Source: Sulfurimonadaceae bacterium
GTDB taxonomy: Bacteria > Campylobacterota > Campylobacteria > Campylobacterales > Sulfurimonadaceae
DNA: 64,000 nt
Assembly: GCA_041571435.1 (NCBI GenBank)
Contig: JBFFUI010000002.1
Location: forward strand, 64,001-128,000
Direction: 5' to 3'
Shown piece after piece: positions 58,868 through 64,000 of this stretch (within the stretch, counting starts at the first letter, position 1; each line of letters opens with the position of its first letter). A model generated the notes under the pieces. That model had not been told where the DNA came from, did not search any database, and saw nothing but the letters and a program-made list of their open reading frames with translations. The translations under genes and the position numbers were made by a program.

Positions 58868-60688
58868 ATGTTGATGGCAATACGGAACAAACGTAAAGCA
58901 ATTGGTTTAAGTCTCATTGTAACACTGGGGCTTGCTTCTGCATTGAACGCAGGTATTATTACAACGCAGCAACAAGCTGCACCGAGTGTAGCACCTGGAT
59001 TTAATGGTTTGAATCTGGATAACGTCGATGTGTTGATGACGGATGACTTGTTTGATCCGGCAGGGTTTTCCGGAACAGGTGATTTCAATAAAACGGATGG
59101 CTCTTACCCGACAATGACCTATGGCGACTCTTTTGAGAGCCAGGTAAAAGATGACAGCGGTACAGTCATGGTAAAACTTCACGGCAAGACCTGGCCTGTA
59201 GGCGAACCGCTGGGTATAAAAGTCATTACCGATTCGCCGGGCGACCCTCAAAACGGAAAACCGGACAACTGTATTATGACGACCTCTTATCTGGATACAG
59301 GCTACCTGGATACAGACAGTCCTAATCCAACCAACTGTAACAGTCCATTCCAGACCCACAAACGTTTCAAAGCCAACCTGCAGCAAACGCTTGTTGACGG
59401 TGCGGGCGTTGAGAGCTTTGATCTTGTCTTCAATGTCGCACCCGAAGCGGATCCGGCAGTGCGCCGTTACCAGCTCTTTCAAAAGATCAACAACTACACG
59501 CAAGAGCGACTCTCGGGCTATAACGTTGAAGTCGGTTTCGGTGTCGGTGCAAACTTTACGCGTGCCGATTCAGCTGACATTACCCTTTCGATCGGTGAAG
59601 GCGAAAATGCAGGAGATGACATCTGGGCAGAAGCGGAACGCGCGACCTTTGCACACGGTCTTTGGGGACCGGTAGATAAGCACTTCCCGGTGCCTGGTTT
59701 CTTCAGCCAATACTCTGCAGGTTTTGAAGTCGCACTTGACGGTGACCAGAAAGGGGCGACTTCCGGACCTTCACTGGACGTAAACTATAATAGCAACTAT
59801 CTAACACTGTTCGGCGAATGGCTGCCGAGAAAATGGGCACCGACTGGTATTTTCCACGATTTTGACGATGATCCGACAACAGATGCGGATATCGTAGCAT
59901 TTTGGGCAGACGTTGATGGTGACGGCACCTACGCCTGGACCTATGGCGGACCAAATTTCAACCTGGTCGACAACGCCACCCTTGAGTCATGGGCGGCAGA
60001 CCGTCTGTACAGTGTCGGACTCATCGAAGATGTCCTTAACCTGGGTCTGAACTACATCATCAATATCGGTGATGTTACGACATTCGATGACTTCAACGCC
60101 ACCAGTGAGACAGCGACATTTACGATTCGTATCACACCGGTCAAAGGAACGACCGGAACGGAACCGGGCTGGATCACAAATCCGCCGATTCTCGGTACGG
60201 CGGGAAGCCTGGGTGCCGTTTCAATCGGGGCCGATCCGTTTGCACCGGGTGATGTATTGACCATTATTGTCACGGATGGCGATCTCAACGAAGACAACAC
60301 GACCATTGAAACTGTAGAGATCAATGTGACAAATACGCTCGGTGAGACAGAGCTCGTGACGTTGACAGAGATCGCGCAGACATCGGGGTACTTCAGAGGT
60401 ACACTCGCTACCAACGATTCAGACGTGGCAGGTACAGATAACGACGGTATTCTGAACGTAACGAATGGTTCACTGGTGACAGCGACCTATAACGATGCCG
60501 ATGACGGTACTGGAAGCCCTGCTGTTGTAACGGACACGGCACTGGCACAAACACCGGTTACGCCACCGCCAAGTAACAACGATACAGCTGATGGCTTTTC
60601 AACGATGGATAACGTCAGTCTTTTCGCAATGATCTTCGGATTCCTTGCCATAGGCGGTTTCATCGCACGTAAACGACTCGCCAAGTAA
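58868..60688 (+). CDS. Choice-of-anchor F-like secreted surface protein with a C-terminal TM/basic sorting tail
   Basis: Signal peptide; NCIMTT, C.SPFQTHKRFK, QKINNYT..RL.G...EVGFG recalled from this family; Ig-like segment; ends DNVSLFAMIFGFLAIGGFIARKRLAK. Confidence 0.7.
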   Translation: MLMAIRNKRKAIGLSLIVTLGLASALNAGIITTQQQAAPSVAPGFNGLNLDNVDVLMTDDLFDPAGFSGTGDFNKTDGSYPTMTYGDSFESQVKDDSGTVMVKLHGKTWPVGEPLGIKVITDSPGDPQNGKPDNCIMTTSYLDTGYLDTDSPNPTNCNSPFQTHKRFKANLQQTLVDGAGVESFDLVFNVAPEADPAVRRYQLFQKINNYTQERLSGYNVEVGFGVGANFTRADSADITLSIGEGENAGDDIWAEAERATFAHGLWGPVDKHFPVPGFFSQYSAGFEVALDGDQKGATSGPSLDVNYNSNYLTLFGEWLPRKWAPTGIFHDFDDDPTTDADIVAFWADVDGDGTYAWTYGGPNFNLVDNATLESWAADRLYSVGLIEDVLNLGLNYIINIGDVTTFDDFNATSETATFTIRITPVKGTTGTEPGWITNPPILGTAGSLGAVSIGADPFAPGDVLTIIVTDGDLNEDNTTIETVEINVTNTLGETELVTLTEIAQTSGYFRGTLATNDSDVAGTDNDGILNVTNGSLVTATYNDADDGTGSPAVVTDTALAQTPVTPPPSNNDTADGFSTMDNVSLFAMIFGFLAIGGFIARKRLAK

Positions 60689-60838: not shown

Positions 60839-61411
60839 ATGAAAACAAATACAAATCAACGTAGAGATTTTTTGAGACTATTGGGTCTCGGTGCCATTGC
60901 AACGGCTTCGACAGCATTTGCAAGTGGTGGTGGCCGTAACAAACAAACGGTTGAATTGACTGAAGAACAGAAAGATACACTTTTCTTCATCTTCCAGGAA
61001 GAGAAAGTGGCAAGGGATGTTTATATCACCTTGGGCGAGCTCTATCCGGAGGAGTCAACATTTGCCAATATCCAGCTTTCAGAGCAGGAGCATATTTTGT
61101 CGGCACAGGTCCTGTGTGAACGTTACGGCATCGATACCTCAAGCGTCAACCTCTCGCTGGAGGAGGAGTATGTGGGGCAGTTTGAACTGCTGGCGATGCA
61201 AGAGCTTTATAACAACTGTATCGGCCTCGGTTCCGTCTCACTGCTCGAAGCACTTAAAGTCGGCGAGTTGATCGAGCTGACCGATATTGACGATCTTGAA
61301 GAGGCTGCCGAGGGGATGCCGTCGGATGTTGTCAAAGTCTACGACAACTTGAAAGCAGGAAGCCTGAACCATTTGGATGCATTTCAAACAGCGATCGCCA
61401 GAGAGTCATAA
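60839..61411 (+). CDS. Tat-exported DUF2202 ferritin-like protein
   Basis: QRRDFLR twin-arginine signal; EEKVARDVY, F.NI..SEQEH, E..DI.DL, NL..GS.NHL.AF. Confidence 0.85.
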   Translation: MKTNTNQRRDFLRLLGLGAIATASTAFASGGGRNKQTVELTEEQKDTLFFIFQEEKVARDVYITLGELYPEESTFANIQLSEQEHILSAQVLCERYGIDTSSVNLSLEEEYVGQFELLAMQELYNNCIGLGSVSLLEALKVGELIELTDIDDLEEAAEGMPSDVVKVYDNLKAGSLNHLDAFQTAIARES

Positions 61412-61440: not shown

Positions 61441-61863
61441 ATGAACATGCTAATGATCAACACCCCTGTGAAAAAGAAGCTGACACTCGCTCTCCTCGCC
61501 TACTACGAGACACTTAAACGAGGGGATCTGCAGGCACAGTCTACTCTGATGACAAAAGAGTCCTATCTCCTTACCTTGGAAGCTGTGGGGTTTAAACGCG
61601 CATTCAAAGATCCCGAATTCAAAGCCCTTCTAAAAAAAATCAGCGATGATGAAAAGGCACTGCACACAGTTGAGACAATACTCTCAAATGATTTGGCTGC
61701 CGAAGCAAGAGAACATGACATAGCACTTCTCTCATTTGATCCGAAAGGGTCAGACCGCATGACCGTCCGTTACACGGAAGACGGGCACCCTAAAAAACTC
61801 TACTTCTCATCGCTCTCCGGAGAGTGGAAGATCGACTATAAAGCCGGCCGGCGAAAAATATAA
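61441..61863 (+). CDS. Hypothetical protein (possibly NTF2-like)
   Basis: AGGAG RBS; YYE.L..GD...WKI pattern. Confidence 0.65.
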   Translation: MNMLMINTPVKKKLTLALLAYYETLKRGDLQAQSTLMTKESYLLTLEAVGFKRAFKDPEFKALLKKISDDEKALHTVETILSNDLAAEAREHDIALLSFDPKGSDRMTVRYTEDGHPKKLYFSSLSGEWKIDYKAGRRKI

Positions 61864-61868
61864 CGACC

Positions 61869-62168
61869 CTATTTAAGGGTTAAGATATGCTGCGCCAACG
61901 CCGCGGCATCATCCGCATCCACACCTTTTAATTTCGCCTGGTGCATACCTAGGTAGCGTGACGAGACTTTGCTCGTTCCATCCAGAAACGCCCGGATGCT
62001 TGTCGTCATCTGCTCTTCACTTAGCGTGTTAAGCTTGGGTGAGGTCTTCAAAGCGATCTTTTCCCCCTTCTTGCCGTGACACATCGCACACTTTTTATAG
62101 ATAGATGCGCCATCGAAAGCGGAGAGTGCCAATGCACCCAGGGTCAGCAACAAAACAATCTTTTTCAT
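61869..62168 (-). CDS. Periplasmic monoheme class I cytochrome c
   Basis: Signal peptide, DGASIYKKCAMCHG, distal Met (LGMH). Confidence 0.92.
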   Translation of the reverse strand: MKKIVLLLTLGALALSAFDGASIYKKCAMCHGKKGEKIALKTSPKLNTLSEEQMTTSIRAFLDGTSKVSSRYLGMHQAKLKGVDADDAAALAQHILTLK

Positions 62169-62331
62169 CTTTTCCTCTCTATTCTCTCTCTTTTACGCTA
62201 TTTTAAAACAGACTTGCTTAAAATGGATGTTAATCAAATCTCTTCAAAATCATTAAAAAATCACCCCTTGGTAGGATGCATTTTTTGTTTTTTTTGACTA
62301 CTCAAATGTATCTTAATAAAAAGGAGTCTTT

Positions 62332-63693
62332 GTGAAGCAGCTACATCGTTTTGCCTTGTTTTCATGCTGTCTGCTCTTATTTGGCTTTTTGGAAAACGCA
62401 CAGGCTGTTCCCGGTTTTGCACGACAGACCGGGTTAGAGTGTATGATGTGTCATACCCAAAACCAGACCAAACTGAACCGTTTTGGACGCGAGTTCGCCC
62501 GTTCAGCCTATACCATGAGCTCGGAGTCCGGTGCACAGTCGCTTATCGACGGCGAAGCACTTGGCCTCAGTATTCCCTCGGTGCTTAACATGTCCTTGAT
62601 GTTAAAAGGACGGATCGAAAAAAGTGACGGGGCCATCAACGGAAAAGGCAATGTCCTTGAATCAAAAGTTGACGGCGAGAAGATCGACAGCAACCGCGGA
62701 ATCTATGAGTTCTTCAAAACCTCGACCATCAATGTTGCCGGGCGCGTCGCCAACAATGTCGGTACGATCATCGAATTTAGAGAGAAAGAGGGCAAAGCGA
62801 TCTTCGGCGGAAAGATCGCAACCGCTTTTGAAACAGGCAGCGGCTATAGCGGTCTAGCCGTCTATTCCACAAACAACTATGGTCCGTTCAGCGGAATCGA
62901 AAGTTACAATACCGGTCTCTACAAGCCCTTGCGCCAGTTCGAAAATCACAAATTGACCAACGCTGCCCAGGCATCCGATCTTGGAAGCGGACCGGCCACC
63001 GGTCTGCAGCTTTACTATGGAGGCGAAAATCTCTTTGTGACACTCGGTGCCTATGTGCCGATACATAACAATGACGGCATCGACATTGGCGACAGCATGA
63101 TCCCTTTTGCCCGAATAGCGTATGAGCAGCCTCTCGGTGATTTGACGCTTACTGTAGGGGCTTTCGGTATCAGCGGTACTGCTACAGCCAGCAATACCAC
63201 ATTTTATCCTGCACTCTCGGGTCTGATCCCCGATGCGCTTGTCGGGGTAAAAAAAGAGGCCTACGGTTTTGACCTGCAGCTCGAAGGTGTCATCTTGGAT
63301 ATCGAGACATTGATGACCTTTGTTGCTGTACCGAAAAACAAAACAACGCTGAGTGATGCCTCCTTGATGGTCTATGAGACAAAACCACTCTCTGACTCAG
63401 TCTATGGTGAACCGGAAGACGCTGAGACGGCAGCCTACTCTGTCGATCTCTCCATCCACCCATGGCCGTCGCTTGGCTTTAAAGTGGCCTACTTGACCGC
63501 CGACGACAGCGGCCCACACACCTATGAACTCGACAAGATCGACGTCAAGGACAAGGACGCCGTCACACTCGGGTTTGACTATTCATTCCGTCAAAACGTA
63601 TTGCTGACCATGGAGTACTCGATGGTCAATGCAAAAAAAGAGGAGATCGAAAACTATAACGATCTCTTAACTGTTCTAACGATCTCATTTTAA
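62332..63693 (+). CDS. Cyc2-like fused monoheme cytochrome c / outer-membrane porin
   Basis: Signal peptide AQA|VPGFARQTGLECMMCH...KLNRFGREF...Y, then amphipathic beta strands ending in Phe (LTISF). Confidence 0.85.
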   Translation: MKQLHRFALFSCCLLLFGFLENAQAVPGFARQTGLECMMCHTQNQTKLNRFGREFARSAYTMSSESGAQSLIDGEALGLSIPSVLNMSLMLKGRIEKSDGAINGKGNVLESKVDGEKIDSNRGIYEFFKTSTINVAGRVANNVGTIIEFREKEGKAIFGGKIATAFETGSGYSGLAVYSTNNYGPFSGIESYNTGLYKPLRQFENHKLTNAAQASDLGSGPATGLQLYYGGENLFVTLGAYVPIHNNDGIDIGDSMIPFARIAYEQPLGDLTLTVGAFGISGTATASNTTFYPALSGLIPDALVGVKKEAYGFDLQLEGVILDIETLMTFVAVPKNKTTLSDASLMVYETKPLSDSVYGEPEDAETAAYSVDLSIHPWPSLGFKVAYLTADDSGPHTYELDKIDVKDKDAVTLGFDYSFRQNVLLTMEYSMVNAKKEEIENYNDLLTVLTISF

Positions 63694-63702
63694 ATGGAGT
63701 GT

Positions 63703-64000
63703 ATGATGAAAAAAATGACTAAAAACGTACTATTGTTCTCAACAGTCTTACTGCTGACCGTGGCAGAGTCCGCTTATGCTCAACCCGGATTTTCACGCCA
63801 GACGGGTAAAGAGTGCAGCGCATGTCACGTCCAGAACATGCCGAAACTCAACAGCTACGGTCGCCACTTTGCCCGTTCAGGCTATACGCTTTATGACACC
63901 GAAAATGAGCTGCAGTCTGCAATAGAGGGCTCAGACATGCCGTTGAGCCTGCCAGGCGTCTTGAATGCTTCGGCTGTCTTGAAAGCGCGCTACAGCAAAG
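63703..64000 (+). CDS. Second Cyc2-like cytochrome-porin (runs off the window edge; not in ORF track)
   Basis: Manual translation (GGAG RBS): MMKKMTKNVLLFSTVLLLTVAESAYA|QPGFSRQTGKECSACHVQNMPKLNSYGRHFARSGY...LSLPGVLNASAVLKARYSK. Confidence 0.85.
   Translation, partial: MMKKMTKNVLLFSTVLLLTVAESAYAQPGFSRQTGKECSACHVQNMPKLNSYGRHFARSGYTLYDTENELQSAIEGSDMPLSLPGVLNASAVLKARYSK

Follow-up and report, generated by a model that had tools for sequence, protein, structure and literature searches.

A tandem pair of Cyc2-like fused cytochrome-porin genes and their conserved neighbourhood in a Sulfurimonadaceae genome

The 64,000-nucleotide stretch of DNA analysed here (the window; contig JBFFUI010000002.1 of GenBank assembly GCA_041571435.1, G000:C2:64001-128000 in our numbering) belongs to the genome of a Sulfurimonadaceae bacterium (G000), which amounts to 2.16 Mb in 66 contigs. 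At its end lie two adjacent genes, cyc2A and cyc2B, whose products are, with high probability, members of the Cyc2 family of fused cytochrome-porins. Taken as a whole, the best explanation, namely a two-gene operon of paralogous Cyc2-type fused cytochrome-porins acting through an Fe(II) mechanism, is held with slightly better than even confidence. The two genes are as follows.

62332..63693, plus strand: cyc2A (open reading frame 1, ORF1; copy A), fused monoheme cytochrome-porin of 453 amino acids (aa), complete, with a signal peptide to AQA25, an AVPGFARQT motif, C37MMCH41, TKL replacing PXL, and a C-terminal Phe.
63694..64000, plus strand: cyc2B (ORF2; copy B), N-terminal 99-102 codons inside the window and the rest beyond its end, with a QPGFSRQT motif, CSACH, PKL and a C-terminal Phe.

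Two adjacent genes of the Cyc2 type

The cyc2A gene starts with a GTG codon located 7 nt downstream of an AGGAG sequence. The full cyc2B gene was read from the genome (G000:C2:127694-128977; L002:1471-2754) and encodes 427 aa from its first ATG, an in-frame codon at 63694 directly after the cyc2A stop, or 423 aa from the MKKMTKN start used by its orthologs, which makes 63706 the likely start. A previous reading of the window, made from its letters only (the sequence-only reading), had described two adjacent co-oriented paralogs separated by 9 nt. The paralogy is borne out, the proteins of 453 and 427 aa being 43% identical over residues 6-452 (E 1.8e-86), a likeness that for this reason is not due to chance; the gap of 9 nt holds if cyc2B starts at 63703, whereas the start favoured by the orthologs gives 12 nt.

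Neither protein has a matching model in Pfam or NCBIfam, and the assignment to the Cyc2 family relies on sequence comparisons. Indeed, BLASTP alignments with a Gallionella protein gave 31% identity over 285 aa for ORF1 (E 2e-29) and 32% over 306 aa for ORF2 (E 5e-27), and both extend far past the heme segment into the predicted barrel region. Stand-in Cyc2 hidden Markov models (HMMs), built from the alignments made here in place of those of FeGenie, were searched against all 5136 genomic ORFs of 100 aa or more, and each of the three returned exactly these two proteins: copies A and B scored 152.7 and 104.8 bits with the HMM from 120 Gallionella-type proteins, 115.0 and 100.4 bits with that from 143 Ferrovum-side rows, and 296.9 and 270.9 bits with that from 78 other Gallionella-side rows. 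Together with the motifs and the trees described below, these results uphold the Cyc2 architecture proposed in the sequence-only reading. That reading had also suggested looking past base 64000 for more copies; this completed cyc2B and revealed no third one, and a third Cyc2-like copy elsewhere was rejected, only two matches being found genome-wide.

The search with ORF1 found 90 proteins among 8000 scored candidates, and the named ones are nearly all from Sulfurimonas; they include an ORF1-type ortholog with 64% identity (P0028), named as Candidatus Sulfurimonas marisnigri. The family is very large, as a profile of 51 relatives retrieved 5222 cluster representatives at E<=1e-3 and 610 at the stricter E<=1e-30. 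When one genome per species was scanned, 598 pattern matches were obtained, 554 of which encode relatives; the scan required an AVPGFARQT or FGREF pattern and is therefore biased, so that Zetaproteobacteria with other spellings may be missed. Its best five matches are metagenome-assembled genomes (MAGs) of Sulfurimonadaceae or Campylobacterota, with 69-90% identity, in agreement with the Campylobacterota host that had been read from the sequence. Next come Nitrospinota, Thiohalomonadaceae, a Gallionella MAG and Nitrosomonadales and, further off, a Ferrovum MAG.

The N-terminal segments carry the heme motifs. The protein of ORF1 reads AQA, followed after the presumed cleavage site by VPGFARQTGLECMMCHTQNQTKLNRFGREF, then by LSIPSVLNMS and finally TISF; that of ORF2 reads AYA, followed by QPGFSRQTGKECSACHVQNMPKLNSYGRHF, LSLPGVLNAS and VIAF. 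Signal peptides were recognised by eye in both copies from a basic n-region, a hydrophobic core and an AQA or AYA site before P-G-F. Both copies share PGF(A/S)RQTG directly after AxA, one CXXCH, KLN-x-(F/Y)GR-x-F, LS(I/L)P-x-VLN-x-S and a terminal Phe. All motifs listed in the sequence-only reading are present in both proteins, and its distinction between TKL in copy A and PKL in copy B was also right.

According to Keffer et al. (2021; PMC8406198), a Cyc2 protein is at least 365 aa long and combines a signal peptide and a single CXXCH with a 16-strand porin like OprO/OprP; the motif AXPXFAR[Q/K][T/Y] upstream of CXXCH is unique to Cyc2 and serves as the published screen, and PXL, four residues past CXXCH, belongs to the Cyc2 consensus, is common to other cytochromes and stands outside the screen. 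The two proteins, of 453 and 427 aa, have one CXXCH each (CMMCH in copy A, CSACH in copy B). Upstream of it, copy A reads AVPGFARQT, which matches the strict pattern, and copy B reads AQPGFSRQT, with S for A, and because of this residue would fail the strict published screen; the strict pattern occurs in 33 of the 48 rows of the copy A clade and in 3 of the 10 rows of the copy B clade. As to PXL, copy B has PKL and 8 of the 10 rows of its clade have the motif, whereas the Pro position is occupied in the 48 heme-bearing rows of the copy A clade by T (35), S (10), H (1), N (1) and P (1). Since Pro is absent from 47 of these 48 rows, its loss in copy A is a fixed trait of the clade and not an error.

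Exactly one CXXCH is found in all full-length rows of both clades. It is missing from the five shortest rows (388-413 aa), three of which cover just 87-92% of the query, and for these reasons they look N-terminally cut. C37, C40, H41, Q32, G52, R53 and F55 show no variation among 51 diverse relatives, and the C-terminal Phe is present in 51 of the 52 rows of the ORF1 clade and in all 11 rows of the ORF2 clade. In a third Campylobacterota clade, one of the 12 rows (P0062, named as a Sulfurospirillaceae MAG) is a diheme variant of the fused cytochrome-porin, with a second CXXCH in an insert after the heme segment.

Each protein is predicted to form an outer-membrane beta-barrel, in which about 35 N-terminal mature residues would hold one c-type heme inside. 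Profile comparisons point weakly in this direction. The family profile matched a DcaP-like porin (PDB 6eus) with E-values of 7.9e-4 and 1.2e-3 and, more weakly, OmpU (about 0.1); Pfam Porin_4 was matched weakly in 3 of the 51 family members; and in the ESM Atlas a cluster neighbouring the nearest ones has Porin_O_P in 20% of its members, which is a lead only. An hhalign comparison with seven Porin_O_P proteins from genomes of the same family, Sulfurimonadaceae, aligned 164-258 columns, a span corresponding to most of the post-heme region, with a probability of 38% and an E-value of 3e-4. A likeness to OprO/OprP was also the published HHpred result for Cyc2 (PMC8406198), with which these matches agree weakly, and they are no proof of the fold. 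A count of amphipathic strands (28 segments at an arbitrary threshold) was too crude to be used as a strand count and was discarded. The beta-barrel of the sequence-only reading is thus in keeping with the terminal Phe and the porin matches, and its fold is weakly supported.

The proteins could also be ordinary diffusion porins, in which the heme motif would be vestigial or structural and would transfer no electrons. Most of each protein is indeed porin-like, the Pro of PXL is missing from copy A, and the PXFAR motif of copy B is altered. Against this stand the seven invariant residues of the heme segment across the 51 relatives, the single CXXCH kept in all full-length rows of both clades and the cytochrome c553 gene retained alongside in all five related loci (see below), and this explanation appears highly unlikely.

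Phylogenetic position and distribution

Two trees were computed, one with FastTree from 309 rows, leaving out those below 380 aa, and one with IQ-TREE (quick, LG+C20) from 69 hand-picked rows; they are without rows from Zetaproteobacteria, Chlorobi, Acidithiobacillus and Leptospirillum, and Cluster 3 is unanchored in them. Both show a deep split with full support (100). On one side is a type of about 460 aa that includes a Ferrovum MAG; on the other are Gallionella, Nitrosomonadales, Nitrospinota and the two proteins of the window. Copies A and B fall inside an 18-row Campylobacterota clade (support 99) as two separate lineages (support 100 each), for which reason the duplication predates the split of these genomes. 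Their next relatives are a third Sulfurimonadaceae type, with names including Sulfurimonas crateris, 'Sulfurimonas microaerophilic' and Sulfuricurvum sp. PC08-66, and a Thiohalomonadaceae group; the wider grouping of Campylobacterota and Thiohalomonadaceae forms a clade (support 97) that is sister to the Gallionella group.

The Cyc2 of Gallionellaceae belongs to Cluster 1 (PMC8406198, PMC7029218) and that of Ferrovaceae to Cluster 2 (PMC13390463). Cluster 1 is made up of neutrophilic iron oxidisers, with Zetaproteobacteria and Chlorobi besides the Gallionellaceae. A tree against the Cyc2 clusters had been proposed as a check in the sequence-only reading; it places the pair on the Gallionella (Cluster 1) side and not on the Ferrovum (Cluster 2) side, but as a sister clade and not inside the Gallionella group. 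In a Nitrospinota MAG, two adjacent Cyc2-like genes (L009:4001 and L009:5585) are mutual nearest relatives in the tree, which indicates that tandem duplication of a Cyc2-like gene happened more than once.

The proteins of the window resemble those of Cluster 1 (Mariprofundus ferrooxydans PV-1, Ghiorsea bivora Cyc2TAG1_1, Gallionellaceae) in many respects, the characterised proteins being compared by description only: a signal peptide, one CXXCH, about 420-450 aa and a C-terminal Phe; an AXPXFARQT-type motif whose T is separated by three residues (GLE/GKE) from the first Cys of CXXCH; FGR-x-F and LS-x-P-x-x-LN-x-S motifs; 31-32% identity to the Gallionella homolog over about 290 aa; and, in both trees, a position on its side of the deep split. 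They differ from them by their Sulfurimonadaceae host, the tandem paralogs, the dedicated c553 and LuxR-type regulator, the T or S replacing the Pro of PXL in copy A and the S replacing A in PXFAR in copy B. With Cluster 2 (Acidithiobacillus ferrooxidans Cyc2; Ferrovum Cyc2-like) they share the fused architecture and the N-terminal motif, and the corresponding HMM still gives 115/100 bits. However, the proteins of that side have about 460 aa, PEL one residue nearer the heme motif and, C-terminally, a long NYDG-FGR-NASDNN segment, and lie across the fully supported split (100) from those of the window.

More distant systems can also be compared. OprO/OprP (Porin_O_P) and the DcaP-like porin (PDB 6eus) show a weak profile likeness to the C-terminal two thirds, but they have no heme domain and the sequence likeness is marginal. 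MtoAB, PioAB and MtrCAB are, like the predicted function here, outer-membrane electron conduits for iron, but they consist of separate porin and decaheme proteins and reach solids, whereas a single polypeptide with one heme is encoded in the window.

Within the family, a Cyc2-like match (E<=1e-10) was obtained in 63 of the 201 genomes sampled, G000 included; it was present in 51 of the 155 high-quality genomes and in 10 of the 23 genera. The gene is therefore accessory but common in the Sulfurimonadaceae. Adjacent A and B pairs occur in nine genomes of two genera (G000, G007, G045, G071, G056, G117, G153, G165 and G193). In another genome, a Cyc2-like gene (G076:C11:20521-21782) appears as two overlapping pieces, matching the profile at positions 6-157 and 156-427, probably because of a frameshift or an assembly error.

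Conserved neighbourhood and genomic context

The pair belongs to a conserved module that is new here, consisting of a divergent c553 gene, cyc2A, cyc2B and a convergent LuxR-type regulator, in an order that is identical in all five related loci. The regulator (Pfam GerE, 1.3e-15) lies just past the end of the window. The other features of the region are listed below.

58868..60688, plus strand: secreted choice-of-anchor F protein, 606 aa, with a C-terminal hydrophobic anchor (NCBIfam NF033657, 1.4e-63).
60839..61411, plus strand: DUF2202 protein, 190 aa, with a Tat-like signal (PF09968, 8e-30; weak NCBIfam TAT-signal match).
61441..61863, plus strand: ORF of 140 aa, of no known family in Pfam or NCBIfam; a variable neighbour.
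61869..62168, minus strand: c553-like monoheme class I cytochrome c, periplasmic, 99 aa (Pfam Cytochrom_C, 5e-08).
62169..62331, no strand assigned: divergent intergenic region of 163 bp separating cyc2A from the c553 gene, presumed to act as promoter region.
L002:2843-3175, plus strand: secreted protein of 110 aa, very rich in Gly, Gln and Lys, of no known family, directly after cyc2B.

The nearest solved sequence to the 99-aa cytochrome is a cytochrome c553 (1.5e-05). Its CAMCH motif and Met75 do not vary among six orthologs, and the genome encodes five paralogs of it; its gene is divergently transcribed from cyc2A and occupies the same place in the five related loci. A consensus scan found no sigma-70-like site in 62169..62331, and nothing in the promoter and terminator scan exceeded the shuffled background. 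The small glycine-rich protein has a tblastn match in 3 of the 5 related loci, or 4 of the 5 when a 22-residue match is counted. The genes upstream are more variable: the choice-of-anchor F gene is found in three of the five loci; the DUF2202 gene, two genes upstream of cyc2A, in two; and the 140-aa ORF is intact in two, with broken pieces in a third. DUF2202 is presumably a member of the ferritin-like clan, and a part in iron handling would be in keeping with this. The guanine-plus-cytosine profile is flat across the region, and there is accordingly no sign of an island around cyc2AB. Among the sequencing runs listed as containing this DNA, none is an RNA run, and the DNA runs are probably those of the source samples.

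Several genes elsewhere in the genome bear on respiration. A subunit of the cbb3 oxidase, FixO, is encoded, as are two NiFe hydrogenases. No match to SoxY, SoxB or NapA was found in the genome, which is rated 100% complete, and a lone SoxZ fragment is present at a contig edge (C5:1-123); either the sox genes fall in assembly gaps, or the lineage is without the usual Sox system.

Furthermore, a cluster of multiheme cytochrome genes with 4, 10, 4, 8 and 11 CXXCH is located on another contig (G000:C1:11000-30900; L084), together with genes for two NHL/beta-propeller proteins, a peptidyl-prolyl isomerase, a 595-aa ORF of no family, a 1057-aa CcsB-type cytochrome biogenesis fusion and a GGDEF protein. 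Sub-threshold matches to the DmsE/MtrA family of decaheme cytochromes were obtained for the proteins with 8 and 11 hemes, and the cluster looks like an extracellular electron transfer (EET) island. A protein of 794 aa with 12 CXXCH (G000:C5:68338-70722; L085:1839-4223) is similar to ExtM from the operon for selenite/tellurite reduction (1.3e-61, a match under the cut-off of the family).

Possible functions and significance

In the mechanism proposed here, dissolved Fe(II) or a similar soluble reductant would enter the pore and give an electron to the heme of Cyc2, from which the adjacent c553 would carry it to the cbb3 oxidase, encoded in another part of the genome. Cytochromes of the c553 type donate to the cbb3 oxidase in Campylobacterota. 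The sequences show homology, motifs, paralogy, synteny and the presence of cbb3; from these we infer the heme inside a barrel, iron as the electron donor, the hand-over to c553 and any gain of energy. The c553 is suggested as the acceptor by synteny alone, and oxidation of Fe(II) at the heme by likeness to Cluster 1 proteins, two of which were shown in separate studies to oxidise Fe(II) in vitro (PMC8406198, PMC13692758): that of Mariprofundus ferrooxydans PV-1, with a potential of +208 mV (PMC8406198), and Cyc2TAG1_1 of Ghiorsea, at -130 mV and with a low-spin heme having two axial ligands (PMC13692758). On this analogy, Fe(II) oxidation of some kind by Cyc2A and Cyc2B may be put at roughly even likelihood. 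Monoheme Cyc2 is predicted to oxidise dissolved Fe2+ and not solid Fe(II) (PMC8406198); the sequence-only reading, which had also considered uptake of electrons from mineral surfaces, went too far in this respect.

Several points weigh against iron oxidation by a Cyc2 pair. In brief, copy B has S for A in PXFAR and copy A is without the Pro of PXL; the hhalign probability for a porin is low; the Cluster labels used here come from genus names in MAG titles and not from characterised Cyc2 sequences; the two NiFe hydrogenases mean that other electron donors are available; and Cyc2 homologs are common in organisms not known as iron oxidisers, the authors of these surveys warning of other roles such as detoxification (PMC8406198, PMC10734525).

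The pair could therefore handle iron or soluble redox species without energy conservation, in detoxification of Fe(II) at the cell surface, redox sensing or the exchange of electrons with shuttles within a wider EET kit. Besides the functions raised in the Cyc2 studies just cited, the patchy distribution (63 of 201 genomes, 10 of 23 genera), the multiheme island and the 12-heme ExtM-like protein elsewhere in the genome, and the dedicated LuxR-type regulator, which suggests conditional use, are all consistent with such a role. Nevertheless, a c553 of the module's own fits a respiratory hand-over better than simple detoxification, and the genes are on the Cluster 1 side, where the function is best supported; a non-energetic role seems possible, if doubtful.

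Alternatively, the proteins could conduct electrons outwards, so that those obtained by oxidising sulfur or hydrogen would reach a partner organism, or Mn(IV)/Fe(III) in soluble or colloidal form. The ORF1-type ortholog P0028 is named from Candidatus Sulfurimonas marisnigri, which is cited as oxidising sulfide with Mn(IV) oxide (PMC9122950, 10.1101/2024.02.22.581617), and published data mention EET genes expressed by a Sulfurimonas MAG near cable bacteria. However, a single pore-buried heme is predicted to reach dissolved species only (PMC8406198), no reductase role of Cyc2 was found in the accessible parts of the literature surveyed, and the multiheme island is a better candidate for outward transfer, which makes this alternative distinctly unlikely.

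Oxidation of dissolved Fe(II) by the pair remains the preferred explanation, and a bolder version of it can be formulated, in which the sediment Sulfurimonadaceae bacterium would be a cryptic iron oxidiser or electron-uptake lithotroph. Its old and conserved Cyc2 pair would have heme pockets of different build, since the clade of copy A has lost the heme-stabilising Pro, and would cover two redox windows, with a c553 of its own as acceptor and LuxR as control. On this view, as some Cyc2-like gene is present in about one third of the species of a family treated as specialised in sulfur and hydrogen, iron could be an electron donor that has been overlooked in the whole group. This version is speculative and improbable.

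The presence of Cyc2 in Campylobacterota is not in itself new, and the novelty attached to it in the sequence-only reading was overstated. Indeed, a clade of Epsilonproteobacteria/Campylobacterota, whose hosts are sulfur oxidisers, is nested among Zetaproteobacteria in a published Cyc2 tree (PMC12442345, 2025), and cyc2 was reported in a Campylobacterota MAG (PMC12261689); no Cyc2 was found in the plume species studied in PMC10066037, and Campylobacterota and Sulfurimonas are not mentioned in the accessible part of PMC10654088. In the accessible portions of the literature on Cyc2 with Sulfurimonas or Campylobacterota, no account was found of the c553-cyc2A-cyc2B-LuxR module, no description of a clade-wide loss of the PXL Pro and no experiment on whether a Sulfurimonas oxidises iron. 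That members of this family may oxidise iron is a hypothesis already in print in general form; the module and the paralog pair make it easily testable.

At present, the pair is a further case of Cyc2 homologs in a bacterium that is not among the known iron oxidisers. Some of the names attached to its homologs are those of organisms in culture or enrichment (Sulfurimonas crateris, 'Sulfurimonas microaerophilic', Candidatus S. marisnigri), in which the question can be tested, and a natural pair with and without the Pro of PXL is a ready-made experiment on heme tuning in Cyc2. Many redox interfaces are dominated by Sulfurimonadaceae, which models treat as oxidisers of sulfur and hydrogen; if their Cyc2 works as in Zetaproteobacteria, the sulfur and iron cycles would be linked.

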